A stretch of 64,000 bases of DNA from Escherichia phage EC.P2: the sequence record PQ631072.1; one strand, 5' to 3'. This document shows, in pieces, positions 77 through 53,278 of this stretch (positions within the stretch are counted from its first letter, which is position 1; the number at the start of each line of letters is the position of its first letter). Under the pieces are notes generated by a model. The model ran no database searches. It saw nothing but the letters and a program-made list of their open reading frames with translations, and was not told where the DNA came from. Position numbers and translations under genes: made by a program.

Positions 77-158
77 CGGGGTGTATCTCACCTGACTTCT
101 AATCAGGCGTTAACCGAGTAATTGGAGTATGCAGGTTCGAATCCTGTCACCCCGACCA
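77..158 (+). tRNA. tRNA-like element (atypical; D-arm not resolvable by hand)
   Basis: 7-bp acceptor stem 77-83/148-154, T-arm with TTCGAAT loop 131-147, A discriminator, encoded CCA 156-158; possible anticodon stem-loop 91-107 (loop CTTCTAA). Confidence 0.4.
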
Positions 159-176
159 AAAAGTTTTAAAAACTAC

Positions 177-206
177 TTGACAAGCAAGATAGTTTTATGT
201 TAGATT
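177..206 (+). promoter_or_regulatory. sigma70-type promoter (TTGACA-18 nt-TAGATT)
   Basis: TTGACA 177-182, TAGATT 201-206, directly upstream of tRNA at 222. Confidence 0.5.
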
Positions 207-221
207 TAAAGTATGATAACG

Positions 222-311
222 GGAAGGTAGGGCGCAGCGGTGCGCAACCAGGTTTGAACCCTGGCCCATTGTAGCGATACGGTGATGGTTCGACTCCATT
301 ATCTTCCTCCA
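222..311 (+). tRNA. tRNA-Ser (anticodon UGA), long variable arm
   Basis: Hand-folded cloverleaf: acceptor 222-228/301-307, anticodon stem 248-252/260-264 with loop TTTGAAC, T-loop TTCGACT, CCA 309-311. Confidence 0.75.
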
Positions 312-329
312 AATTCAACTAGGAGCTTT

Positions 330-482
330 ATGAATTATAAAACTATTGGACAGGTTGTTACCGGAGTTAAGATTGTAGATAATAAAGTTGTTTATGAGTA
401 TTCTAATCTTCAACAATCTGAAGATGGTAAAAATATTCGTATGGTAAAAGCAGAACAAAAAGATTCCGGTTGTTTTGAATAA
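330..482 (+). CDS. hypothetical small protein (50 aa)
   Basis: ATG 330 preceded by AGGAG at 321-325; the longer 282 start in the ORF track overlaps the tRNA and was trimmed. Confidence 0.4.
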   Translation: MNYKTIGQVVTGVKIVDNKVVYEYSNLQQSEDGKNIRMVKAEQKDSGCFE

Positions 483-490
483 TTAAGAAC

Positions 491-576
491 GGTAGATTGG
501 TGAAATGGTAGCCACAACAGTTTGCTAAACTGTCGTCGGAAACGGCGTGTAGGTTCAAGTCCTACATCTACCGCCA
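491..576 (+). tRNA. tRNA-Ser (anticodon GCU), long variable arm
   Basis: Acceptor 491-497/566-572, anticodon stem 517-521/529-533 with loop TTGCTAA, T-loop TTCAAGT, CCA 574-576. Confidence 0.75.
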
Positions 577-710
577 AGTTATCTTTAATGTAGCTTGTAA
601 TCTTACTTTAATAGAGTAAACTTTCGGCAGATGGCCTCCACCATCTTACCGATACCCTGATACTTCATAGTCAAGTGCCGCAAACACTGGCTATTTTAAA
701 GATAATTTAT

Positions 711-786
711 ACATCGTTAGCTTAGTTGGTAGAGCAAGGGGCTTTTAACTCCAAGGTCGAAGGTTCGAATCCTTCACGATGTACCA
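711..786 (+). tRNA. tRNA-Lys (anticodon UUU)
   Basis: Acceptor 711-717/776-782, D-loop AGTTGGTA, anticodon loop CTTTTAA, T-loop TTCGAAT, CCA 784-786. Confidence 0.75.
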
Positions 787-791
787 AACAC

Positions 792-878
792 GTAGGTATC
801 GCATAGCGGCAATTGCTGGAGACTGTAAATCTCCTGCCCTTCGGGGCTTCGTTGGTTCGAGTCCAACTACCTGCACCA
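792..878 (+). tRNA. tRNA-Tyr (anticodon GUA), long variable arm
   Basis: Acceptor 792-798/868-874, anticodon stem 818-822/830-834 with loop CTGTAAA, variable-arm hairpin, T-loop TTCGAGT, CCA 876-878. Confidence 0.75.
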
Positions 879-885
879 AATTAAA

Positions 886-970
886 GATGGATTGGCCTAG
901 TGGTTGGGCGACGGACTGTTAATCCGTGAACGAAAGTTCTAGCAAGGTTCAAATCCTTGATCCATCGCCA
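886..970 (+). tRNA. tRNA with Asn anticodon GUU on a long-variable-arm (class II-like) scaffold
   Basis: Acceptor 886-892/960-966, anticodon stem 911-915/923-927 with loop CTGTTAA, 15-nt variable arm forming GAAC/GTTC hairpin, T-loop TTCAAAT, CCA 968-970. Confidence 0.6.
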
Positions 971-977
971 GAATTAT

Positions 978-1054
978 GGACTTGTAGAGTTAAGGTAAAC
1001 CCTCAGTCGCCAAGAGGCTTCTGGAATTGCAGGTATCGAATCCTGCCGAGTCCA
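978..1054 (+). tRNA. tRNA-like element (atypical; 8-nt T-loop, no canonical anticodon arm found)
   Basis: Acceptor 978-984/1047-1053, T-arm GCAGG-TATCGAAT-CCTGC; anticodon not assignable by hand. Confidence 0.4.
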
Positions 1055-1060
1055 ATTATT

Positions 1061-1135
1061 GCTCCTATCGTATAACGGCTATTACGGTTGCCTTGTAAGC
1101 AACTTATCAGGGTTCGAGTCCTTGTGGGAGCACCA
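1061..1135 (+). tRNA. tRNA-Thr (anticodon UGU)
   Basis: Acceptor 1061-1067/1125-1131, anticodon stem 1087-1091/1099-1103 with loop CTTGTAA, T-loop TTCGAGT, CCA 1133-1135. Confidence 0.75.
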
Positions 1136-1158
1136 ATTTTAACTCTAAAGGAGTGTAT

Positions 1159-1482
1159 GTGACAGAAAAAGAGTTAGAGAAATATTTTAATATCAATGTT
1201 TTCGATGGTTTTGATGATATTGAAGATGTTGAAAGACATTATGAAGTAGAGTTAGATAAGGATAACATTGTAATTCTTTCTGCCACTTATGATTGTGCAT
1301 ATTATGAAGGTGAATCTCACGTTTATTTTTATGATATGAAAACATCTTTGTTTTATGAAGTACACGCATATCATTGTTCTTGTTATGGTTTAGAAGGTCA
1401 GTGGGAACCTGAAGAAATAGGTGATTTGGACTTTACTATTGCATATCTAAACAGACGTGGTGCATCTACTATTTTAAAATAA
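1159..1482 (+). CDS. hypothetical protein (108 aa)
   Basis: ORF in track; GTG 1159 lies 5 nt after AAGGAG at 1148-1153. Confidence 0.5.
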   Translation: MTEKELEKYFNINVFDGFDDIEDVERHYEVELDKDNIVILSATYDCAYYEGESHVYFYDMKTSLFYEVHAYHCSCYGLEGQWEPEEIGDLDFTIAYLNRRGASTILK

Positions 1483-1496
1483 ATATCAAAAGCCTC

Positions 1497-1526
1497 TTGA
1501 CAAAGGGGCTAATAATATGTTAGAGT
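1497..1526 (+). promoter_or_regulatory. sigma70-type promoter (TTGACA-18 nt-TAGAGT)
   Basis: TTGACA 1497-1502, TAGAGT 1521-1526, upstream of tRNA at 1538. Confidence 0.5.
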
Positions 1527-1537
1527 AATATTGTTAA

Positions 1538-1612
1538 GCGGGTATAGTGTTAATGGTAGCATATGAGGTTTCCACCCTCCAGGTGCAGGTTCAAGTCCTG
1601 TTACTCGCTCCA
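1538..1612 (+). tRNA. tRNA-Gly (anticodon UCC)
   Basis: Acceptor 1538-1544/1602-1608, anticodon loop TTTCCAC, T-loop TTCAAGT, CCA 1610-1612. Confidence 0.7.
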
Positions 1613-1712
1613 AGATTATTTAAATGGAATCGCTAGAGAAAATTTCTCTTTTCGCTCATGGTTTTCTCCTTCAAACTCTAGCGGTTCTTTTTAAGTGATT
1701 TTTTAGTTTTAT

Positions 1713-1787
1713 TGGAGATTAGCCTAGTGGGAAGGCAACGGCCTTTGAAGTCGTGATGACTAGGTTCGATTCCTAGATCTCCAGCCA
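1713..1787 (+). tRNA. tRNA-Gln (anticodon UUG)
   Basis: Acceptor 1713-1719/1777-1783, anticodon stem 1738-1742/1750-1754 with loop CTTTGAA, T-loop TTCGATT, CCA 1785-1787. Confidence 0.75.
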
Positions 1788-1794
1788 GTATTTA

Positions 1795-1870
1795 CAGTGC
1801 GTAGCGCAGTTGGTAGCGTGGGAGCTTTGGATGCTTCGGGTCGCAGGTTCGAGTCCTGCCGCACTGACCA
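1795..1870 (+). tRNA. tRNA-Pro (anticodon UGG)
   Basis: Acceptor 1795-1801/1860-1866 fully paired, anticodon stem 1821-1825/1833-1837 with loop TTTGGAT, T-loop TTCGAGT, CCA 1868-1870. Confidence 0.8.
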
Positions 1871-1875
1871 AATTT

Positions 1876-1950
1876 GCAGAGATAGCTGAGACGGATTAGT
1901 GCTACCCTGAAAAGGTAGAAAGGATGGATCGTTACCATCTCTCTGCACCA
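1876..1950 (+). tRNA. tRNA-Phe (anticodon GAA) with non-canonical T-loop
   Basis: Acceptor 1876-1882/1940-1946 perfectly paired, anticodon stem 1902-1906/1914-1918 with loop CTGAAAA, T-loop ATCGTTA instead of TTCRANY, CCA 1948-1950. Confidence 0.7.
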
Positions 1951-2027
1951 AATAACACCATCCAAGGAGTAGACTTGGTTAACTGTCAATAGCACATCGA
2001 GGCTTCTTACAGTGGTGTACTTATTAT

Positions 2028-2112
2028 GGCTAAGTGGTGGAATGGTATACACGATACGCTTAGAACGTATTGCCCCAAGGGATTGTGAGTTCGAGTCTCA
2101 CCTTAGCTACCA
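2028..2112 (+). tRNA. tRNA-Leu (anticodon UAG), long variable arm
   Basis: Acceptor 2028-2034/2102-2108, anticodon stem 2054-2058/2066-2070 with loop CTTAGAA, T-loop TTCGAGT, CCA 2110-2112. Confidence 0.75.
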
Positions 2113-2200
2113 TATCTAAGAGATATCATAGGGTTTGCAACGGATATCTACCGTCCTGTTAAGGATACCACGCCAAGACGGGTTATAAAGGGTTAGCCAT

Positions 2201-2276
2201 TGATAGTGTGAAGCTGGCGTTTCGAGTGCTTTCATAAGGCATTGCGAGAAGAGTTCGATTCTCTTACTATCAACCA
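2201..2276 (+). tRNA. tRNA with anticodon CAU (elongator Met or Ile2)
   Basis: Acceptor 2201-2207/2266-2272, anticodon stem 2226-2230/2238-2242 with loop TTCATAA, T-loop TTCGATT, CCA 2274-2276. Confidence 0.7.
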
Positions 2277-2291
2277 AATTACTACAGATTG

Positions 2292-2370
2292 CGCGGGATA
2301 GAGGAGTCTGGTCGTCCTCGCCAGTTTCATATGCTGGAGATCGTAGGTTCAAATCCTACTCCCGCCTCCA
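2292..2370 (+). tRNA. tRNA with anticodon CAU (Met-type; unpaired 1:72)
   Basis: Acceptor 2292-2298/2360-2366 with C-C mismatch at top, anticodon stem 2321-2325/2333-2337 with loop TTCATAT, T-loop TTCAAAT, CCA 2368-2370. Confidence 0.6.
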
Positions 2371-2428
2371 ATAAATACCTCCCTTCTGGTGTAATGATTA
2401 AATTGCATTGACACTTCAAGGAACTCAT

Positions 2429-2511
2429 AGCCGGGTAGATTTAAAAGAGTATGGTACTCAATATGGCTCCAAACCATAGATCAAGGGGTTCGATTCCTCA
2501 CCTTGCTGCCA
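2429..2511 (+). tRNA. probable tRNA-Trp (anticodon CCA); 5' half irregular
   Basis: Anticodon stem 2462-2466/2474-2478 with loop CTCCAAA, T-loop TTCGATT, acceptor 3' strand 2501-2507 plus CCA 2509-2511; best 5' acceptor partner 2429-2435 has one mismatch and implies an insertion before the D-arm. Confidence 0.45.
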
Positions 2512-2516
2512 ATTAT

Positions 2517-2592
2517 TGTGGTATCGTACAGATGGTTAGTACACTCGACCGATAATCGAGAAACAACGGTTCGACTCCGTTTACCACGACCA
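2517..2592 (+). tRNA. tRNA-Ile (anticodon GAU)
   Basis: Acceptor 2517-2523/2582-2588, D-stem GTAC/GTAC, anticodon stem 2544-2548/2556-2560 with loop CCGATAA, T-loop TTCGACT, CCA 2590-2592. Confidence 0.75.
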
Positions 2593-2703: not shown

Positions 2704-2973
2704 ATGTATACTTTAAAAGTAATTCGCAAGTTTCCTCAAGAAGAGGAAGTAAGAATTTATAACACTGTACCATTCGTAGTAAATGAAGAAGAATTCTTTT
2801 ATTGCTTAGAAGATGAAGTAATTATTCAATATCATTGGGAAGGTTACGACAGACAAGATGGTGTTGTAGCTTCTGTGATTGCTGGTGAAAGAGTGTTATT
2901 CATTCACAAAACTGAATCAGCATATTTAATGAATGATAAAGGACAAACTGTTAAAGTAATTAACAGACCATAA
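2704..2973 (+). CDS. hypothetical protein (89 aa)
   Basis: ATG 2704 with AGGAG at 2694-2698; followed by intrinsic terminator. Confidence 0.55.
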   Translation: MYTLKVIRKFPQEEEVRIYNTVPFVVNEEEFFYCLEDEVIIQYHWEGYDRQDGVVASVIAGERVLFIHKTESAYLMNDKGQTVKVINRP

Positions 2974-41654: not shown

Positions 41655-42086
41655 TTAATCAGTGAAAATTACGCTTACATCTTCTTTAGAAAAGAGTTTA
41701 TGATTTTCACCTTTTGTCTCAAGAGTTTCATACAGGTTAAGAAGTTCTGAAACATCTTTCTCTACTAGTTTCTTCAATGTTGCAATTTTCTGTTTGCGAT
41801 TCTTAATACGTTCAGCTACAACCTTACGTTGGTATCCGGCAGTACGATAACCTGAGAAAGTTACACCAGTGAGACTTGCAGTTACAGGATCGTAGTGACG
41901 TTCAATCTGAAATTTATTAAAAGGTACAGCGTCATCACGAATAATCTTACCGCCATTACTTACTTGACGAAGACCAGTAACTTGTTCCAGTCGTGCCATA
42001 GAAATCTTTGGAGACAGACCAGAGTCCAGGTTCATACCGTTGTTAATCAGTGCTTTCAGGGTGATTTTGCTGTTCAGTGTACTCAT
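41655..42086 (-). CDS. hypothetical protein (143 aa)
   Basis: Start at 42086 has GGAGGA RBS; overlaps 3' end of methyltransferase gene by 44 nt. Confidence 0.45.
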   Translation of the reverse strand: MSTLNSKITLKALINNGMNLDSGLSPKISMARLEQVTGLRQVSNGGKIIRDDAVPFNKFQIERHYDPVTASLTGVTFSGYRTAGYQRKVVAERIKNRKQKIATLKKLVEKDVSELLNLYETLETKGENHKLFSKEDVSVIFTD

Positions 42087-42774
42087 TTAGTCGTTCCTCC
42101 GCTTGTTTAAAAATATTTACATCGGCTTCACAGCCTAAGTATTCTCTACCTGTTAAAAGTGCCGCAACTTGTGTTGTTGCACTTCCAGAGAAGAAGTCTA
42201 AGACTACATCTTCTTCGTTGGTATGTATATTAATAAGGTCACAAAACAAAGTCAAGTGTTTTTGTGTTGGATGAAAACGATCTGCTCCTTGATAGATAGG
42301 ATACTCAAACACACCCTTATGATAGGAAGCATTGAAGGTTGGCTTCGAACCTTTAACACAGACAATAGCCATCTCTTTAGCGTTACTAAGGTAGTTAACA
42401 CCACTGTTGATGGGTACAGGGTTTGTTTTAATCCATTCAATAGTACGGAACATACGAAAACCAAGCGGTTCAAGGATTTCACGTAGCTCCTGGATCTTCC
42501 AGATATCATACCAAACTATGCAAGTACCACCTTTTCTAAGCACCCTATAGGCTTCTTTGAATACTTCTTTAAAGTAAGGAATATCTACAACATCCCAGTC
42601 ACCAAAGTTGTAAGATACACGGAATCTATCTGTATCTTTTCCAGTAGGCTCTCCAGATTGAAAATTTGTGTCACGAGAAATAGCATAGGGTGGGTCAGTA
42701 AGAATCAAATCTACACTATTGCTTTCGAGGGTTTGCAGGTAGTTTAATGCGGTGTTGTTTACAAATTCGCTCAT
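42043..42774 (-). CDS. DNA methyltransferase, beta-class (N6-adenine or N4-cytosine)
   Basis: Motif IV DPPY near N-terminus (LILTDPPYA) followed by motif I FFSGSATT near C-terminus; AAGGAG RBS. Confidence 0.85.
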   Translation of the reverse strand: MSEFVNNTALNYLQTLESNSVDLILTDPPYAISRDTNFQSGEPTGKDTDRFRVSYNFGDWDVVDIPYFKEVFKEAYRVLRKGGTCIVWYDIWKIQELREILEPLGFRMFRTIEWIKTNPVPINSGVNYLSNAKEMAIVCVKGSKPTFNASYHKGVFEYPIYQGADRFHPTQKHLTLFCDLINIHTNEEDVVLDFFSGSATTQVAALLTGREYLGCEADVNIFKQAEERLNEYTEQQNHPESTD

Positions 42775-42791: not shown

Positions 42792-42811
42792 AAAGGAGCC
42801 GTTAGGCTCCT
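42792..42811 (-). terminator. hairpin terminator; near-copy of the 41624 hairpin
   Basis: AAGGAGCC-GTTA-GGCTCCTT; in minus sense followed by TTCTTTG. Confidence 0.5.
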
Positions 42812-42834
42812 TATATTCACACAATATTTAATTA

Positions 42835-43782
42835 TTAGAAACAGTGCAGGAAGTTTCGACCATATTGCAAACCAATAGGCGCAAATGGGATATCATCATC
42901 GAAATCTTGAACAACAGGTTCTGGTTCTTTCGGTGCTGGCTCTTTCTTCTCTACTTTTTTAGTTTCTTTCTTAACTTCTTGTACTGGAGTAGACATTCCA
43001 CGGATAGCAGCAGCTACTTTATCAGACAAAGCAAGAACTTCACGAGCAGCTTCAATAATCTCTTCTGCCGTTACAGTTTTACCTGTATGATCACGACAAG
43101 CGTTAAGAATTGCGTGTCCAACTGAAGCACCAAGATCATAATCAGTCACATCAACGCCACGATCTTTAGCAATTTCAGCTTTCAGAGTAACAGTTGCAGA
43201 TTGTACCACACCAGCCAAGTCGAAAGCATCACCTTTCACACCAGCACGTAGAAGCTCCAGAGCGCCGTTTACAGCGTGTCCTGTTTCAATCCCTACGGTA
43301 TCACGTTTTTTGTAGTTAGGCTTGCTACCGTCATTATTAGAGGGCTTATTTCCACCTTTTGAAGAGGATTGTGCTTGCTGAACACCTTCTGTTGAAAGAA
43401 TAGTGATTTTACCTTTAGAGGAGTTGTAGTATGTTTTGCCATTCCATTCAGAAGGTTTAACATCCATAGTTAGTTCTACACCTTTTTCGATAGTAACCCA
43501 CTTATCACCATCTTTAACTTGCAGGTTTTCATGTTCTGGGTGCAGTTTAACTTCACCTAGGCTAACCCAAACACCTTTATCATCAGCACCAGCACCTTTC
43601 TCTTTAATAAGCAGAGATGCTTTGTGAGTTGATTCAATTTTCTTATCTGGCTGACCTGCAACCTTAATATAAGAGACTTTCATTTCATCAAACTTATCTA
43701 GTTTGACATATTCGACAATACCTTCAGCCCAGAATGCTTCTTTTTTAGTACGACGGTCGATTTCAGAATTAATTACTGGCAT
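42835..43782 (-). CDS. DNA-binding protein with SSB-type acidic motif (DFDDDIPF) near C-terminus
   Basis: Motif VQDFDDDIPF matches the canonical SSB tail tip but is followed by 15 more residues; Gly/Asn/Ser-rich linker upstream. Confidence 0.45.
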   Translation of the reverse strand: MPVINSEIDRRTKKEAFWAEGIVEYVKLDKFDEMKVSYIKVAGQPDKKIESTHKASLLIKEKGAGADDKGVWVSLGEVKLHPEHENLQVKDGDKWVTIEKGVELTMDVKPSEWNGKTYYNSSKGKITILSTEGVQQAQSSSKGGNKPSNNDGSKPNYKKRDTVGIETGHAVNGALELLRAGVKGDAFDLAGVVQSATVTLKAEIAKDRGVDVTDYDLGASVGHAILNACRDHTGKTVTAEEIIEAAREVLALSDKVAAAIRGMSTPVQEVKKETKKVEKKEPAPKEPEPVVQDFDDDIPFAPIGLQYGRNFLHCF

Positions 43783-43798
43783 AAATTCTCCTCTATAA

Positions 43799-44197
43799 TT
43801 ACATTACTTTAACACAAAACTCTCGTAAAAGAGTAGCGTCAGTTTCTTCCAACAGGTATTTACCAAGACCAATACCAAATCCTATTTCACCACTTTCAAA
43901 ATGGAGAATTTGTATCTTTTCTCCACCAAGATTAATTACTTTTGCTTTTCCAGGATTATCCAAAACATCTCGTATTGTGTCCTGTAGTAGCATTAGTTCA
44001 CGTTTTGTGATAGTGGTTTCAGATATCTCTTTGTCTTCTACCCGCACTGTTAAACGGTTGTATCCACCAAAGAGACATAGTATTTGAATAAAAAAGGTAT
44101 TATCTTGAGGTTCAACATCTTTTTTAGTTAGTTCAAGACGATTAGTTTCTCTACTATAGAACGTCTCGACTAAGATTTTAGAACGATTGTCTATCAT
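43799..44197 (-). CDS. hypothetical protein (132 aa)
   Basis: ATG with GAGGA RBS. Confidence 0.45.
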   Translation of the reverse strand: MIDNRSKILVETFYSRETNRLELTKKDVEPQDNTFFIQILCLFGGYNRLTVRVEDKEISETTITKRELMLLQDTIRDVLDNPGKAKVINLGGEKIQILHFESGEIGFGIGLGKYLLEETDATLLREFCVKVM

Positions 44198-44240
44198 TCA
44201 AGTCCTCATAATAACACATAATTGTAAGGTTTGTCAACAC

Positions 44241-44834
44241 TTAAATCTTAAATTCTTCGTTGTTAAATGAATCCAGTGTACGTACTTCTGGTTCTTTGGG
44301 AATGAAAACGTCTTTTACAAAGCGGAACATAGGGAAACGTTCTGCCATTTTACGGACGTGTGCTTCTTTACCTGTGTATCGGTGATTAATAGTGCAAATA
44401 TTAGTTTTCAATGCAAATTCAAAATCTGGATGATATACATAATTTTGACCATCCCAGTAACACAGGCAAATAGCTACGTCAAAGTTCCATACGATTTCAC
44501 TGCGTACACCTTCTTCCATGATCATAAAGTTAAACTTAAGGTCTTTATAGTATGCTTCAAATACCCATTTCAAATGTGGTAGTTCGGCATAAGTGTGTTC
44601 TGTTTGCTTAGTAAGTTGTTTAACATTACGTGCACCAACACCCAACATCAAAAACTTCTCTACTAGCACGAGTGTATTGTGGTTAGGCATACGCAAGTAA
44701 ATGTCAATATCTTGTGCAGGTTTCTCTAATCGCCAATCACGTACAGCGCCGCCAGCTACAATTGCAAACGGATCTACCAGTTGGCACATACGTAATACTT
44801 CTAAAGCGCGTACTTTTTGATCTTCAATATTCAT
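44241..44834 (-). CDS. nucleotidyltransferase (Pol-beta superfamily; CCA-adding/poly(A) polymerase head-domain-like)
   Basis: N-terminal motif VAGGAVRD....DIDIYL matches the GGxVRD...DxD signature of tRNA nucleotidyltransferase heads. Confidence 0.5.
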   Translation of the reverse strand: MNIEDQKVRALEVLRMCQLVDPFAIVAGGAVRDWRLEKPAQDIDIYLRMPNHNTLVLVEKFLMLGVGARNVKQLTKQTEHTYAELPHLKWVFEAYYKDLKFNFMIMEEGVRSEIVWNFDVAICLCYWDGQNYVYHPDFEFALKTNICTINHRYTGKEAHVRKMAERFPMFRFVKDVFIPKEPEVRTLDSFNNEEFKI

Positions 44835-44971
44835 ATTTTCTCCTATCTCTTATGGTCTTTGCGTTATTCTAGATGTTCAAACATCTAATTATGAAATGGT
44901 TTAAAAGTGTGGAACAACCTTGGCAATAATAGATTGTCCCACATAAAAACTCCTTTAAAATCAAAGGGATG

Positions 44972-47551
44972 TCAGTGACAAGACGCCCATGAGTTACCAA
45001 CATCGTAACCAGCAGTGAGAGGTACATTAAGATTGTAATACTCACCAGCTTTATTAACAGCGATAGATGCTAATTCTCCAGCACGACTGTAGGCTGTAAA
45101 CCAACCACCTTTCGGAGATTCATGTACGTTAGCCCAAATCTTGCCAGTACGTTTCTCTTCCTCTTCTTTCCAGGCGTTAACTTTATCCAAACATTCTTTA
45201 TCAATTTTCTTTTGTTCTTCTGGATCATCAACTTGAGTCCAACCTAAAGATTCTTTAGAGAACCATTTAAAATGCACGAGATCACGAGTTACTTCAAGCT
45301 GTGCTTCATCGTGATATGCAATCATTTGTTGAACGAATGACTTATTTTTCCAGTCATCAACAAAAAAGTCAACAGCTAATCCTTCTTCTTCGATAAGATC
45401 ATCGTAGATAACCATTGCTCTTTTTGCACAAATAACACCACCACTCTGGAACAGAGAGTTAAGTATTGCGTGTGCAGATCGTGTAGGTACTTTCCTTCCA
45501 TCAATACCAAGAATGTATTTCTTACCTGTTTTAACCCAAAAGTCATGCAGACGTTCTTTAAGAAGCGCAAGAGGTTTTGCAGCTTCCCAGAAAGCATCGT
45601 ATACAAGCTGTCCTGTATACATATCACTACCAATAGTTTTTGCTACTTTTGCAGCTTGAGCACCATAAGTAATACCATACTTAACAGATTTAGCAGGGCT
45701 TCGTTCAAACTTACGACCAATAGTGTCAGAAATACGTCGAGCCATCATTGTATGAACATCATTAGGTTTTTCCAACAATAGAGCATTACAATATTCGTGT
45801 GGTTCCTGCTCGTACCGCCAACAGTAGTGTGATTCTATTTTTGCCTCAAGAGAATCAAAGTCATAACCAATTTGGAAGTATTTTGGAACTTCTACACCAA
45901 ATAAGTTACGCATTTCATATCCGTACAGAGATGTTACACGTGGGATATTTGCTACTAACCTATGTTTCATACGAGACGTAGCTGCATCACACGTTGCAGC
46001 AGGAGTTGGTATACGACCATCAGCCCTTACTGCCGCCAGATAACCTTTATCGTAATCCTCTTCATCTTCTTCCCAATCAGCGCCACCCCCTAGAATAGAG
46101 TTTCTACGATGTTTATACGTAAGATACTGCACAATCTGCGTAGCATAAGGAAACTTTTCACCTAGTGCTTCCAAGTTAGGACAAATATCCTTCTCTTGCC
46201 CTTTTGTAAAGGAAGGGTTAGTAAGCACTTTAACACCACGACCTTTAGCTTTAGCAATACGATCTCTTAGTTTCCATTCCAAAGTTTCTGGTGTGCACTC
46301 CAGATGATCACATCTGTCCTGGCAGAAGTTAGATGCTAATGTTTGATCAACATAGTCACGAATAGCTTTCTCCATTTGTGCTTCATCTTTCTTAATCTTA
46401 GTGCCAGATTTAAGAGTGATATCTTTATCTTTATATTCAGATGGACTCCAACCTAAACCAACTAACCAATTTTTAATATGTGTAGTGTCGTCTAAAGTAG
46501 CAGGTACTGTAGGATCACAAATAGGTTCTTCTGCTGGAATAGGTAGTTTAAACTCTTTACCTAATGCAAATAACCACCAACCATCTTCTTTTTGTACAAG
46601 TTCACCAGAATGTTTCTCTGCAAACTTTATCATGTTACTTGAAGGTTCACCATTCTTTTTAAACTGTAGTTTAGGTGGAATGAATGATTTCAAATAACCT
46701 TTAGTAGCAGGTTTAGGAGGTAGTACAGGTTCTGCCTCTAAACGACATGCTTCCATTCGAGCATCCAGATCACGAATATTATCTTCTGCTTGTTTCATAT
46801 TGAAAGCAAAGCCACGGTGCTCTTGACGTGTAATAATATCAGCTACACGTTGTTCTAAGTTAAATGGTTCAGACCACTTATTATAATCACCCCACTCTTC
46901 CATCAAATAACGGAACACTGCGGTGTTAGCTTTGTTATCGTAAATACAGTAATACAGCATATCTGCTGCAAATGTTCTAAATCTTTCAGTTTCAGGAATG
47001 TTTTTTCTAAAATCAATTTTAACATCCCCTCCAGCTTTCTTAGATAACTCTGCCAGACTATGACCACCGAAGCGATCAGGGTTTAGTGTCTTACTTAAGA
47101 TCATAGTATCACAAATTTCAATGTTACTATTACCCCAAGTATTGTACTTAATACTGTAGTTGAGTTTAAAAAATAATTTAATTGCCAGTAAGTCGAAGTT
47201 AATGATGTTGTGTCCAACTACTTTGGTAATTTTATAGTTTGAATTACCTTTAAATTTACCTGTTCCATTTACAAAATCAGGAAAATCTTTAAGAGGGAAA
47301 TGGGTATATTCTAAATGCTCATATTCCTCCAGTCGGTATTCATACTTTCCGTCAGTCTCAATATACGGACGACCATCGAAAAGATATTTATCACCATCAT
47401 GGAAAGCAATAATCTCTCCAGTATCATGACTTTCACACACAATACAGTGCATTGCAAAACTATCTTTTAAACGATATGGACTTGCCAAGTAATCTACACT
47501 TTCGTCATTAAGCAAGTTGTTACTTTCAATGTCGAAAGTAAAAGCTCCCAT
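44972..47551 (-). CDS. DNA polymerase, family A, with 3'-5' exonuclease domain
   Basis: Exo I motif FDIESNNL at N-terminus; motif B-like K..YGITYG; motif C-like YHDEAQ; AGGAGG RBS. Confidence 0.85.
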   Translation of the reverse strand: MGAFTFDIESNNLLNDESVDYLASPYRLKDSFAMHCIVCESHDTGEIIAFHDGDKYLFDGRPYIETDGKYEYRLEEYEHLEYTHFPLKDFPDFVNGTGKFKGNSNYKITKVVGHNIINFDLLAIKLFFKLNYSIKYNTWGNSNIEICDTMILSKTLNPDRFGGHSLAELSKKAGGDVKIDFRKNIPETERFRTFAADMLYYCIYDNKANTAVFRYLMEEWGDYNKWSEPFNLEQRVADIITRQEHRGFAFNMKQAEDNIRDLDARMEACRLEAEPVLPPKPATKGYLKSFIPPKLQFKKNGEPSSNMIKFAEKHSGELVQKEDGWWLFALGKEFKLPIPAEEPICDPTVPATLDDTTHIKNWLVGLGWSPSEYKDKDITLKSGTKIKKDEAQMEKAIRDYVDQTLASNFCQDRCDHLECTPETLEWKLRDRIAKAKGRGVKVLTNPSFTKGQEKDICPNLEALGEKFPYATQIVQYLTYKHRRNSILGGGADWEEDEEDYDKGYLAAVRADGRIPTPAATCDAATSRMKHRLVANIPRVTSLYGYEMRNLFGVEVPKYFQIGYDFDSLEAKIESHYCWRYEQEPHEYCNALLLEKPNDVHTMMARRISDTIGRKFERSPAKSVKYGITYGAQAAKVAKTIGSDMYTGQLVYDAFWEAAKPLALLKERLHDFWVKTGKKYILGIDGRKVPTRSAHAILNSLFQSGGVICAKRAMVIYDDLIEEEGLAVDFFVDDWKNKSFVQQMIAYHDEAQLEVTRDLVHFKWFSKESLGWTQVDDPEEQKKIDKECLDKVNAWKEEEEKRTGKIWANVHESPKGGWFTAYSRAGELASIAVNKAGEYYNLNVPLTAGYDVGNSWASCH

Positions 47552-49832: not shown

Positions 49833-50102
49833 CTAAAATGATTCGTTTGTCTCCATAATATATTGCATTTCCAAATCTTCCATATGTTTCTTAAATTGGT
49901 AAACAATTTCCGATGGGGAAATATCTATATCAAAAAGTTCTTTTGTACCAGAATAGAACCTAATACCATCAACAATAAGGCCACCATAATAATCCCAATC
50001 ACTTTCTCGTGAGAAAGGATTAGGTTCTTCATAATAGTAATCTACTTCAACAATAATAGGTTCTTTATTATCTTGTTTATACTCAAAATCAAAAGTGTTC
50101 AT
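49833..50102 (-). CDS. hypothetical protein (89 aa)
   Basis: ORF whose stop overlaps the upstream gene's start codon. Confidence 0.4.
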   Translation of the reverse strand: MNTFDFEYKQDNKEPIIVEVDYYYEEPNPFSRESDWDYYGGLIVDGIRFYSGTKELFDIDISPSEIVYQFKKHMEDLEMQYIMETNESF

Positions 50103-51046
50103 TATAAATCCTCGATAAGCAGTCTGCGGGTTTCATTTAAATCATCAATATTGTAGTTATCTCTTACATACTTAGCAAGAGCTAATCCTTTCTCAATACA
50201 AACATCAGGAGATTCGATTAAGTATTCTACAACATCTTTCCACTCTTTAACTGAATCAGCAAAGAAGATTAGATCTTTAAATTCTTCAGTATAGTAGTTC
50301 TCTCGTGGAGAACAAACGAGTGGCAAACCTTTAGCACCAGCCTCAAGAATTTTTAAATTACTTTTGGCATTATTAAAATGATTATTTACTAATGGAGCTA
50401 TGGAGATTTGATGACCATCGTATGCCTCCATATAACACTCATAAGGACGAATACCTTCATAAACACAATCTGGTTGAATCTCTTCTTTAATTTGCAACCA
50501 TTGAGCACTACTTAACTCTTCGTGATCTCTACGAAATCCACATAACGTTAAATCTTTACCAAAAGTAGGAAGAATTGCTAAATCATGTTTATGTGTTTCA
50601 CTTCCCGCCCAAACCAGTGGGCTTTTAGAATAACGATCTTTAGTAAGAACAAACTGCCCTTCATCAAAAGGTAGTCCGTTAGGCACAATATGTACATTAT
50701 CATTGTATTGGCTTAATTCAACCTTTAATGCTGGAGTTGTTGTAGTTACAAGATCGCTTCTTTCAAGGAACCATTTTAGGTCATCTCGGATTTGATTTTC
50801 AAATAATCCTTCCAACATATGCCCTTCAGGAATAATTAAAGAATCATCCAGATCCATTACCAATTTAAACCCAAGTTGTTTAAGAGCCAGGAAACCTGGC
50901 TTTCCACGAGTTGGTACTCCATTGAACACAAAAATATTATGCTTAGGATTAATGGTCAGTTTGCGTTTATATGGCAAAATGATTCTATGAAAATCACATA
51001 CACTATACCTTTCATGTCCACGTGTGTCAAGAATAATATTAGGCAT
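50102..51046 (-). CDS. glycosyltransferase, GT-B fold (GT4-like), paralog 1
   Basis: Motifs ...VHIVPNGLPFDEGQF... and ...KILEAGAKGLPLVCSP... match the GT4 NGVD and E-x7-E/PVIA signatures; paralogous to 51058 ORF. Confidence 0.55.
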   Translation of the reverse strand: MPNIILDTRGHERYSVCDFHRIILPYKRKLTINPKHNIFVFNGVPTRGKPGFLALKQLGFKLVMDLDDSLIIPEGHMLEGLFENQIRDDLKWFLERSDLVTTTTPALKVELSQYNDNVHIVPNGLPFDEGQFVLTKDRYSKSPLVWAGSETHKHDLAILPTFGKDLTLCGFRRDHEELSSAQWLQIKEEIQPDCVYEGIRPYECYMEAYDGHQISIAPLVNNHFNNAKSNLKILEAGAKGLPLVCSPRENYYTEEFKDLIFFADSVKEWKDVVEYLIESPDVCIEKGLALAKYVRDNYNIDDLNETRRLLIEDL

Positions 51047-51057
51047 ATGGCTCCTTG

Positions 51058-52032
51058 TTAAAGACTTTCAATAACTTGACGACGCAGTTCATTGGCATCT
51101 GCAAGATTATAATTAAGACGAACGTGTTCTGCAAGCATCATACCACGATCTTCTGTGTATCTAGGGTTCCTCATTAGCTTGACAACTTCATAATGCCAAG
51201 ATGCTTTAGAATCTGCATAGATAACAGCCTTTGCATCTACCGGATTGAAGTACGGCAGCACAGGAGAACAGATAATAGGAAGACCCTTTGCACCTGCTTC
51301 CAAAATCTTCAAATTGCTTTTACAGTTGTTGAAGTCATTATCTACCAGAGGAGCAATTGCAATACTGTGACCGTCATACACAGACATATACTCACCTAAA
51401 TTTTTAATAGCTGGTTTATACTGTGCATTTGGAATTTTACGTTTTACTTTAACCCACTCCGCAGTAGTTAGATACTGACTATTATTTCCAACAGGTGCAG
51501 AAGGATACACTTCATACCCTGCAATTGTCAATAGTGTATCATCAAATGTATTAGCTACAAGAGATAAATCAGGTTCATGGCTTGCTCCTCCAGCCCAAAT
51601 AATAGGCGTGTCAGAATAACGGTCTTTTGTCAAAGTAAATTGACCTTCATCGTAAGGTAGTGCGTTTCTAATAACGACAACATTACGATTTAAATGACGA
51701 ATTTTGTAAGCCAGGTATTCTGTTGTTACAGTAACAACATCTGCTAACTTAATCATCTCTACAATAGTCTTTGAGTGATTAGTAAATACGCCAGCCATAT
51801 AATGTTCAGGATTAAGCGAATAAAAGTCATCTAAATCAACAATAATCTTAACACCTTGTGCCTTCAGGCGTTTAACTTCGTCTGATCCACGAGAATACAC
51901 TCTATTAAAAACTAAAACGTCTTTCTTAGGCTTAAACGTATTTCCCGCAAATGGCATTACAATACGATGGTAATCACAACCACTGCCTAACTTATTATCA
52001 CACTTAAGTACAGGGGTATTAGGATTTACCAT
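51058..52032 (-). CDS. glycosyltransferase, GT-B fold (GT4-like), paralog 2
   Basis: ADVVTVTTEYL...VVVIRNALPYDEGQF...KILEAGAKGLPIICSP; start moved to the Met that aligns with the paralog's N-terminus. Confidence 0.55.
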   Translation of the reverse strand: MVNPNTPVLKCDNKLGSGCDYHRIVMPFAGNTFKPKKDVLVFNRVYSRGSDEVKRLKAQGVKIIVDLDDFYSLNPEHYMAGVFTNHSKTIVEMIKLADVVTVTTEYLAYKIRHLNRNVVVIRNALPYDEGQFTLTKDRYSDTPIIWAGGASHEPDLSLVANTFDDTLLTIAGYEVYPSAPVGNNSQYLTTAEWVKVKRKIPNAQYKPAIKNLGEYMSVYDGHSIAIAPLVDNDFNNCKSNLKILEAGAKGLPIICSPVLPYFNPVDAKAVIYADSKASWHYEVVKLMRNPRYTEDRGMMLAEHVRLNYNLADANELRRQVIESL

Positions 52033-52705
52033 ATTTTTGAGCCTCCTCATAAGAGATAAAAGTTTTACCATTGCGAAGATCCTCCAGTGATTGTTTATAT
52101 TGTTCCCAGTTTACACCAATCCCCTGTTCTTTCTCTTCTTTTGACAGATTTGCAAAAGGTAAAGGATTATCTCCAAACACATCGTCAGGATGGATAAACG
52201 CCATAATTCGAATAGGGCATGGTACGCCGTGAATACCTCGGTTCAAACCTGCTAGTGGAACACGCTGAATCCACTCTGCATCTTCATATCCATAACCGTG
52301 GGTGTATGAGCGGAAATAGCCAGCTTTCTCAATAACTGCACGGGAATACATACCAAACTGGCACATACCTAGTTCCCAAATAACCACTTCACCTTCAATA
52401 CCTTTTACTTTATCTTTAAAATATTCAGGCATACCAAAGAAATCCCAGCCATTTTCCTTAGCCTGTTTTACAAAATATGTTTCCCAACCTGGCACAACCG
52501 GATAGCAATCATCATCAAAAATAAACCAGTAATCATACCCTTCATCATAAAACTTTTTCATCAGTTCATTACGGGCATATGCAACACCTTTTCGTTCCCG
52601 ATCATACTGTACAACAAAAGTAGCATTAGGATCAGTCACAAGATAATCTTTAAGAGGACGCTTACCTACAGTAATAACACCAACACCAATTTTTGTATTT
52701 TCCAA
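52019..52705 (-). CDS. glycosyltransferase, GT-A fold (GT2-like)
   Basis: TTG start; DxD-type motif FDDDCY and YGYEDAEW motif. Confidence 0.5.
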   Translation of the reverse strand: MENTKIGVGVITVGKRPLKDYLVTDPNATFVVQYDRERKGVAYARNELMKKFYDEGYDYWFIFDDDCYPVVPGWETYFVKQAKENGWDFFGMPEYFKDKVKGIEGEVVIWELGMCQFGMYSRAVIEKAGYFRSYTHGYGYEDAEWIQRVPLAGLNRGIHGVPCPIRIMAFIHPDDVFGDNPLPFANLSKEEKEQGIGVNWEQYKQSLEDLRNGKTFISYEEAQKYGKS

Positions 52706-52714
52706 AATAACTCC

Positions 52715-53278
52715 TTAAATAATTTTATTCATGTCTTGACAATGTAAAAGGTGTGAAACAGCTTTTCTAGGATCATCACTACCTAAACGGTATGTGTGAA
52801 ATAAATATAGCCCACGTAATAAACCTAGCCTTTTATTGTTAGCGTGTAATGCTTTAGAGAAAATTATATCAAACTGTATTGATCTTTCCTCAAAAGGGAT
52901 TTCATTCCACAGACTCTTACGAAAGAGAAGAAAGAATCCTGCTAAGATAGCATCTGTAGGTACTTCCTCTATTGAGTTTCCCCATTCTAGATGTGCTCTT
53001 TTTGCAATCTCAATGTGGTGTAATATATTTGGATCTTCACTTCTTTCATTATTAAATAATTGATATGTTGATCCCAATCTATTACAAGATGCACCAAGAA
53101 CATCAAAATCAGGATTTGAACGGACTATTGATTCCAACCAAGCAGGTTGTTCTGGAAGAAGAAACATTGTATCAATGTCTCTTAGGCAAATCCAACTATC
53201 TTCTGGTAAGACACTTATTGTGTCATTGATACCTTTTCCAATATCTCCAGAAAGATAGGGAGTTATGTGAAATATCAT
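52715..53278 (-). CDS. glycosyltransferase-like protein (putative)
   Basis: Weak GT-A-like features (DID acidic motif); adjacent to three glycosyltransferases. Confidence 0.3.
   Translation of the reverse strand: MIFHITPYLSGDIGKGINDTISVLPEDSWICLRDIDTMFLLPEQPAWLESIVRSNPDFDVLGASCNRLGSTYQLFNNERSEDPNILHHIEIAKRAHLEWGNSIEEVPTDAILAGFFLLFRKSLWNEIPFEERSIQFDIIFSKALHANNKRLGLLRGLYLFHTYRLGSDDPRKAVSHLLHCQDMNKII

Follow-up and report, generated by a model that had tools for sequence, protein, structure and literature searches.

The 197-aa protein encoded on the minus strand at 44241..44834 of the window (the whole stretch of 64,000 nucleotides analysed here, part of a phi92-like coliphage of the genus Justusliebigvirus) is very probably a nucleotidyltransferase (NTase) of the Gad2 superfamily and not a CCA-adding enzyme. 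It is homologous to Gad2, has the head-domain fold of class-II tRNA nucleotidyltransferases around an intact GG...DxD centre, and has lost the motifs and domains required for CCA addition. By sequence it falls in a short clade that is sister to Gad2, and it is composed of a class-II-type head and the first neck helix; our tentative reading is that it would act as a Gad2-type counter-defence NTase on an acceptor other than tRNA, possibly DNA ends. Few inhibitors of Gabija, a very widespread bacterial defence, have been validated. Gad2 is among them, and how it works was described as unknown in February 2026 (PMC12904381).

The nucleotidyltransferase gene

A sequence-only reading of the window had placed a 197-aa ORF at 44241-44834, which our analysis bears out, adding the strand that it had not given. 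Translation starts at a minus-strand ATG (44834-44832). In 55 phage records the DNA of the surrounding 1.4 kb is 95-99% identical. The locus has the following features:

44208..44237, minus strand: sigma-70-like promoter TTGACA-18-TATTAT with a TG extended -10, just past the NTase stop codon (11/12 matches in the promoter scan)
44241..44834, minus strand: 197-aa ORF for the Gad2-like stand-alone Pol-beta nucleotidyltransferase, orthologue of phi92 gp158
44241..44300, minus strand: codons for the C-terminal ~20 residues (...LDSFNNEEFKI), a low-confidence and probably flexible tail (pLDDT ~60 at residues 178-197)
44451..44483, minus strand: codons for residues 118-128, FDVAICLCYWD, which hhalign sets against Gad2 FDFTVCMGAFDF; it takes the place of class-II motif B (RRDFTINA), but the RR pair is missing
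44697..44759, minus strand: motif A codons, residues 26-46, VAGGAVRDWRLEKPAQDIDIY, with the GG loop for NTP binding, then R32-D33-W34, and D42-x-D44 for metal binding
44840..44843, minus strand: Shine-Dalgarno GGAG, 5 nt upstream of the ATG, as read from the sequence
44972..47551, minus strand: family-A DNA polymerase gene (phrog_17, E 1.7e-111), directly upstream of the NTase gene

An intact class-II-type head

The motif on which the sequence-only reading had rested, VAGGAVRD(x8)DIDI, is indeed present, at residues 26-45. The protein does not begin with it, as had been stated, but with a 25-residue helix. Column counts over 115 aligned relatives showed A27, G28, G29, A30, R32, W34, D42 and D44 to be invariant and D33, K162, K/R166 and P168 to be nearly so; the invariance of G28, G29, R32, W34, D42 and D44 means that motif A is no chance match. 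With its GG...DxD centre intact, the NTase is predicted to be catalytically competent and of the two-metal type. The predicted structure is confident and has the head-domain fold of class-II enzymes, followed by a single neck helix and a short strand. The earlier statement that body and tail domains are missing therefore holds, the 197-aa model consisting of the head and first neck helix alone. In PHROGs the protein falls in phrog_1614 'nucleotidyltransferase' (E 2e-34; cluster phrog_1614/10174).

C-terminal tails vary between subgroups of the family. The counterpart in phAPEC8 ends in ...EEDDIPW, which prompted us to consider an SSB-like acidic-aromatic tail acting as a replisome-docking peptide. 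We rejected this idea, since it finds no family-wide support: an aromatic residue stands among the last four positions in 44/115 members as against 42% expected, and the proportion of D/E differs little from background.

Loss of the motifs and domains for CCA addition

Canonical class-II enzymes (PF01743 head; 3aql, 1miv and E. coli Cca) are ~400 aa long and carry RRD, EDxxR and neck, body and tail domains. The window protein, by contrast, is about half that length and is without these, its model stopping after one neck helix, short of the domains with which class-II enzymes bind the acceptor and T arms of tRNA. Its residues G28-G29-A-V-R32-D33 ... D42-I-D44 conform to the GGxVRD...DxD pattern of motif A and align with Cca residues 4-26, the sole stretch that aligns confidently with the E. 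coli enzyme. Under relaxed extension the family and Cca are collinear over 148 columns, and in this alignment the family shows x-F-x-x-S-x-C-K-A-W opposite Cca RRDLTINA and Y-I-x-K-x-x-x-K-F-P opposite Cca EDPLRVLRVARF. The motif B RRD, which recognizes the ribose 2'-OH, is thus not conserved in the family (115 sequences, in alignments with both Cca and Gad2), and neither is the motif D EDxxR, the amino-acid template for CTP/ATP selection. At the motif D position the window protein has K156-E-A-H-V-R-K162, and the family keeps Y/H159, K162, K/R166, F167 and P168. Loss of the ribose-sensing RRD would be compatible with the use of dNTPs or with a relaxed sugar specificity.

Profile searches agree with the motifs. 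The search with PF01743 that the sequence-only reading had proposed as a check came out below the gathering score (19.1 bits versus 23) and covered residues 26-81 only. The NCBIfam CCA equivalogs fell below their cut-offs (NF009814, 15 versus 290 bits; TIGR03671, 13.9 versus 281), and the window protein gave no match to PF12627, a domain that Cca relatives do carry. When a head/neck profile was built from E. coli cca for comparison, hhalign related it to our family profile with a Prob of 4-9%. The earlier reading had named placement in an unrelated nucleotidyltransferase family as the outcome that would overturn it. Profile comparison does move the protein out of the CCA enzymes, into Gad2/PF26128, although this family is a remote relative of the class-II head and not an unrelated one.

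A short sister clade of Gad2

The family is much nearer to Gad2 than to Cca. A cluster representative of the same length (P0001, 197 aa, 99% identical) has a precomputed match to PF26128 'Gad2' at the strongest reporting level (E<=1e-5), and many relatives of the window protein carry the same label. We compared the family with the verified and listed Gad2 sequences of Supplementary Table 10 of bioRxiv 10.1101/2023.05.01.538930. Our family profile matched Brevibacillus Gad2 with an hhalign Prob of 88.3% (E 2.9e-6) and a nine-sequence Gad2 profile with a Prob of 96.9% (E 1.3e-10, 123 columns), the latter alignment setting residues 12-152 of the window protein against Gad2 17-142 only. Pairwise BLASTP of the window protein with Gad2 gave an E of 1e-5, and its identity to verified Gad2 is 21-25% over about 120 residues.

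Besides being phage-encoded and bearing the PF26128 label, both groups share the motifs AGG...DxDxY/F and FD-x8-D: A27-G-G, D42-I-D44-I-Y46 and F118-D119...D128 of the window protein correspond to IAGG, DLDVYF and FDFTVCMGCYDFD of Gad2. The positions of D119 and D128 are both D in the aligned Gad2 proteins (FDFTVCMGAFDF). Since just 14/115 family members have both residues, most of the clade resembles Gad2 less closely around the active site than the window protein does; we take these 14 members to be an enterobacterial subgroup.

The two groups nevertheless differ. Verified Gad2 proteins are of 394-400 aa and join the NTase to a C-terminal domain of ~230 aa, whereas the window protein is half that size and lacks this domain; Gad2 has T-S-L, with its T/S residues, after the GG loop, where the window protein has the class-II-like R-D-W; and the SPbeta phages carry gad2 in a dedicated anti-defence locus, in contrast to the replication module that holds the gene studied here. 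Nor do they share a PHROG. Gad2 proteins lie mainly in phrog_18122/27100/4400 and the window protein in phrog_1614/10174, with cross-matches in both directions, four Gad2 proteins matching phrog_1614 secondarily (E 1.7e-8 to 8e-4) and the window protein matching the short-Gad2 phrog_4400 (7.5e-4). This combination of cross-matches and separate membership places the window protein in a short sister clade of Gad2 proper. By sequence comparison, then, phrog_1614 is a sister clade without the C-terminal half, and this half, present in Gad2 alone, may hold target recognition. A 400-aa relative (P0124) was considered as an SPbeta-type Gad2 and rejected.

What Gad2 does is known from genetics. [quoted passage not shown] Gad2 also blocks the Gabija system of S. 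aureus. This activity against a staphylococcal system suggests that Gad2 probably acts on something generic and not on one protein surface. No structure of Gad2 was found in the PDB copy searched; by sequence, that copy gave no solved structure for the window family, short Gad2 or long Gad2.

A proposed role in counter-defence

Kinship with Gad2 makes a counter-defence of the Gabija or OLD-family type a possible biological role, one that we put forward with some reserve. The NTase would be produced early or in mid-infection alongside the replication proteins and would transfer a nucleotide to a non-tRNA acceptor, countering a nuclease-helicase as Gad2 counters that of Gabija. Recent work (PMC12407980) indicates that Gabija acts on linear DNA ends that are not occupied by RecBCD and blocks genome circularization, and it is this preference for ends without RecBCD that makes modification either of the 3' ends of phage DNA or of a nuclease ligand the most economical mechanism. 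We prefer the former, in which nucleotidylation or tailing of exposed phage DNA 3' ends would prevent end-sensing nuclease-helicase systems from engaging; modification of a nucleotide or protein ligand (a cofactor) controlling the nuclease is a less likely variant. In its most specific form the proposal makes the 197-aa protein a minimal Gad2 core that on its own neutralizes Gabija, or another OLD-family defence sensing DNA ends, by nucleotidylating phage DNA 3' ends or a nuclease cofactor. We regard this form as unlikely. If true, such DNA-end 'capping' would be a counter-defence chemistry not previously described and would reveal the mechanism of Gad2. The toxicity of SPbetaL7 Gad2 and of Gp22 of Klebsiella phage fHe-Kpn01, a stand-alone head NTase of similar size that is toxic to E. 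coli (PMC7291057), would by analogy fit an enzyme that also acts on host nucleic acids. The literature yielded no report on Gabija versus phi92-like phages and no experiment on any phrog_1614 member, Gabija inhibition included.

Genomic context and a possible role in replication

The position of the gene points to DNA metabolism. No terminator-like site was found by the terminator scan between the polymerase and NTase genes, and the sole promoter-like site between them (44895..44866) matches at 9/12 positions. On these consensus scans the NTase is probably co-transcribed with the DNA polymerase, at the end of its transcription unit, and the promoter at 44208..44237 would mark the end of that unit and the start of one comprising the gp157-like and SSB-like genes. 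Since this strong promoter separates the NTase gene from the gp157-like gene downstream, an operon of these two is unlikely. phAPEC8, Klebsiella phage KP2025 and BME3 all retain the gene order polymerase, NTase, gp157-like, SSB-like, and the NTase gene lies between the polymerase and SSB-like genes throughout the Stephanstirmvirinae and their Klebsiella relatives. Homologs in unrelated lineages lie near DNA_pol_A, a Toprim/helicase (Toprim/DnaB) gene or ribonucleotide reductase. In Vibrio podophages the homolog overlaps a 5'-3' exonuclease gene just downstream of the polymerase, and in ICP1 it lies near a DNA ligase gene and is truncated to the N-terminal 137 aa, being truncated or split in ICP1 genomes. 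Most of the loci examined are accordingly ones of DNA metabolism (polymerase, SSB, primase-helicase, 5'-3' exonuclease, ribonucleotide reductase or ligase); two other contexts are runs of small ORFs, one of which includes an RtcB gene 2.8 kb away.

Such conservation between polymerase and SSB-like gene across a whole subfamily speaks against counter-defence to the extent that it also fits a housekeeping role in replication. The enzyme might then be a replication-linked terminal transferase or a host-takeover enzyme with no immune role, extending the 3' ends of DNA or RNA without a template (at genome termini, on primers or on host transcripts) in normal DNA metabolism or in host shut-off. The neighbouring replication genes of unrelated lineages and the probable co-transcription with the polymerase are in keeping with this alternative; the missing RRD would allow dNTPs to be used, and the toxicity of Gp22 (PMC7291057) and of SPbetaL7 Gad2 would suit host shut-off as well. 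We nevertheless judge it rather doubtful, because the closest characterized relatives are anti-defence proteins, because truncation and splitting in ICP1 genomes suggest that the gene is dispensable, and because it diverges far faster than the replication genes that flank it, which is unusual for a core replication factor. In comparison with phAPEC8 the NTase is 37% identical, the polymerase 79% and the two genes that follow 56-60%; for KP2025 the values are 49.5% for the NTase and 86-92% for the polymerase. No other gene of the syntenic block diverges as fast as the NTase, which would suit a protein that engages a changing host target better than one at the core of replication.

Comparison with other small phage nucleotidyltransferases

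A further alternative is that the enzyme synthesizes a nucleotide signal or decoy, a cyclic or linear oligonucleotide that would jam or pre-empt CBASS, STING or nucleotide-gated nucleases. Small substrates would suit a minimal enzyme without a nucleic-acid-binding domain, and the Gabija nuclease is nucleotide-regulated. GajA has been described as an ATP-dependent DNA endonuclease (bioRxiv 10.1101/2023.05.01.538930), and small phage Pol-beta NTases of the MNT-like type make competitor cyclic dinucleotides (Ho et al., bioRxiv 10.1101/2022.06.09.495361). Like the window protein, these MNT-like enzymes and the CD-NTases are small, phage-encoded members of the Pol-beta superfamily with a proposed anti-defence role. 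Against this stand the motifs: the cyclic-dinucleotide-making phage NTases form a different clade with GS...SDxD, and the window protein does not show their GS-x-AY[GAN]T-x4-SDxD and NP-x-h2[DE], having instead AGGAVRDW-x7-DIDIY. Identity with the enzymes of Ho et al. was rejected on these grounds. Neither the fold nor a profile match places the protein with CD-NTases (cGAS/DncV-like), PADLOC gave no match for it, and no conserved sensor or effector partner lies beside the gene in the loci examined. Synthesis of a nucleotide signal or decoy thus seems distinctly improbable.

Two other proteins of similar size resemble the window protein in part. The 191-aa S. pneumoniae protein NP_344798.1 (PDB 2la3) is like the window family in structure only, and no sequence-level link between them was found. 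Gp22 of fHe-Kpn01 (182 aa) is reported to match canonical CCA enzymes strongly (HHpred 99.8%; PMC7291057), which the window family does not (Prob 9%).

The tRNA array

The sequence-only reading had considered a repair or tagging function at tRNA 3' ends plausible. A head-only enzyme would rebuild or extend the CCA terminus of tRNAs, whether of the phage or of its host, and so counter nucleases directed at tRNA, a proposal that drew on a tRNA array in the window. The array exists, on the plus strand at 77..2592, but the count of about 17 tRNAs proved somewhat high: ARAGORN finds 14, and Rfam adds one more at 77..155 and a sub-threshold candidate at 2448..2508, giving 15-16. For BME3, the closest relative, 16 are reported. 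All 14 of the ARAGORN tRNAs end in a genomically encoded CCA, so that de novo CCA addition is unneeded for their maturation. The NTase gene itself belongs to the replication module and is separated from the array by 42 kb. Moreover, two complete 47-kb Vibrio phage genomes (Zobellviridae) with clear homologs have no tRNA genes, and no tRNA was found within 7 kb of the homolog at four metagenomic loci. We therefore rejected a linkage between NTase and tRNAs, and the presence of an array should not be taken as a functional one. In the annotated relative BME3, the 50-kb stretch taken to correspond to the window shows no RNA ligase or polynucleotide kinase gene.

Several observations had nonetheless favoured tRNA repair, namely a motif A signature and head fold of the class-II tRNA nucleotidyltransferase type, the label 'putative tRNA nucleotidyl transferase/poly(A) polymerase' in several GenBank records, the 15-16 tRNAs of the phage and the RtcB RNA ligase gene 2.8 kb from one metagenomic relative. 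Against them, the host E. coli has its own Cca repair enzyme, and the protein has no body or tail domain with which to hold a tRNA. Taken with the sub-threshold CCA profiles (PF01743 and NCBIfam), the absence of RRD and EDxxR from the family, its far closer kinship to Gad2 than to Cca, the encoded CCA ends, the tRNA-less genomes with homologs and the distance from the array, this makes 3'-end repair or tagging of tRNA very unlikely. The circumstantial support for it is removed, and occasional action on RNA 3' ends may still be compatible with our data.

Distribution and significance of the family

Protein identity is 98.5-100% among phi92-like phages. It falls to ~50% for the Klebsiella relatives, to 37% for Phapecoctavirus, and to ~30% for phages of Vibrio, Aeromonas and cyanobacteria. 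When 5.8 billion proteins were searched with a profile, 761 matches were returned, and an exhaustive HMM search found 2,820 cluster representatives at E<=1e-3, with 1,121 at E<=1e-10. Relatives from the exhaustive search are nearly all stand-alone proteins of 175-230 aa. Fusion partners were sought as a clue in ten longer relatives with N- or C-terminal extensions; no Pfam domain was found in them except a weak PF01743.

The phrog_1614 clade is thus very large and almost unannotated, and it cuts the Gad2 NTase down to about 190 residues. The existing GenBank annotations as an NTase, and the capture of the gene by the Pfam Gad2 model, were already known, and they make the window protein an uncharacterized member of an existing group and no new kind. 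Since E. coli phages that are well studied and of broad host range carry it, some of them in the BASEL collection, the clade is a simple system in which to identify substrate and chemistry, and a minimal Gad2-like enzyme in such tractable phages is a route to the chemistry of Gad2 itself. The GenBank label 'tRNA nucleotidyltransferase/poly(A) polymerase' is probably misleading. Deposited annotations of the family read either 'nucleotidyltransferase' or 'putative tRNA nucleotidyl transferase/poly(A) polymerase', and phages and giant viruses commonly encode stand-alone NTases of the head type.

Genes downstream of the nucleotidyltransferase

These genes and sites on the minus strand lie downstream of the nucleotidyltransferase (NTase) gene:

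44237..44208, minus strand, strong predicted promoter, separate, of the phrog_16560 gene
43799..44197, minus strand, 132-aa protein (phrog_16560)
42835..43782, minus strand, SSB-like protein (phrog_4477), annotated as SSB in relatives
42812..42793, terminator-like hairpin between the methyltransferase and SSB-like genes
42043..42774, minus strand, N6/N4 DNA methyltransferase gene
41655..42086, minus strand, ORF overlapping the methyltransferase gene by 44 nt

In phi92-like, phAPEC8-like and Klebsiella relatives, the phrog_16560 protein (56-60% identity) is invariably encoded next after the NTase gene. The SSB-like protein carries a DFDDDIPF motif resembling the C-terminal tip of E. coli SSB; unlike that tip, however, the motif is internal, being followed by 18 further residues (APIGLQYGRNFLHCF...).

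NTase C-termini and Vibrio phage homologues

Alignment of the NTase family members showed that the conserved peptides at their C-termini (alignment A2) differ by subgroup:

One marine group, ...W(I/V)xDGR(D/E)L(V/A)AF
Klebsiella-type members, ...LD(D/E)AWD(D/N)DNF
Zobellviridae, ...SLPF(W/F)FGW

These peptides may be docking motifs whose partners are lineage-specific. Of the homologue in Vibrio phage ICP1_2001_A (L004 3959..4535), only 137 aa at the N-terminal end are left (ORF223, phrog_10174-like), and a separate ORF of 60 aa comes after them. This gene has either been split or is decaying, or else it represents an even more minimal form of the enzyme. A few kilobases downstream of it lie genes annotated as ribose-phosphate pyrophosphokinase and nicotinamide phosphoribosyltransferase (nadV). 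In Vibrio phage 1.235.O (L014 26947..28570), the NTase homologue lies on the same strand as a 5'-3' exonuclease gene and shares 14 nt with it at the exonuclease stop, suggesting translational coupling to a DNA-end-processing enzyme.

Polymerase and glycosyltransferase-like genes

The DNA polymerase gene of the window (44972..47551, minus strand) is a single unbroken ORF of 859 aa. That of Klebsiella phage KP2025 (L002 377..3976) consists of two CDSs with a gap between them, followed by an AP2-domain gene, and the polymerase of a near-identical metagenomic contig (L012 6054..9992) is 1,104 aa long. The split CDSs and the 1,104-aa form together suggest that the gene has received mobile insertions (a homing endonuclease or intein) in relatives. 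Immediately upstream of the primase-helicase gene lies a further cluster:

50102..53278, minus strand, four successive ORFs of 314, 337, 228 and 187 aa

These ORFs appear to be counterparts of four 'glycosyltransferase' genes of phage BME3, and one of them has a weak Glyco_trans_1_2 Pfam match, seen in a near-identical contig. A glycosyltransferase cluster adjoining the replication module could signify modification of DNA or of surface glycans.

tRNA array

ARAGORN and Rfam differed at these positions in the array:

77..155, plus strand, tRNA (Rfam, 40 bits; missed by ARAGORN)
2201..2276, plus strand, tRNA-Met (ARAGORN; missed by Rfam)
2448..2508, plus strand, tRNA-like match (Rfam, 22.9 bits, sub-threshold)

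Since ARAGORN misses the first and Rfam adds the sub-threshold last, the combined total is 15-16 tRNAs; 16 are reported for BME3. The 3'-terminal CCA is genomically encoded in all 14 ARAGORN tRNAs (222..2592, plus strand). Short ORFs are interspersed among the tRNA genes, for example at about 330..482, 1157..1483 and 2704..2973.
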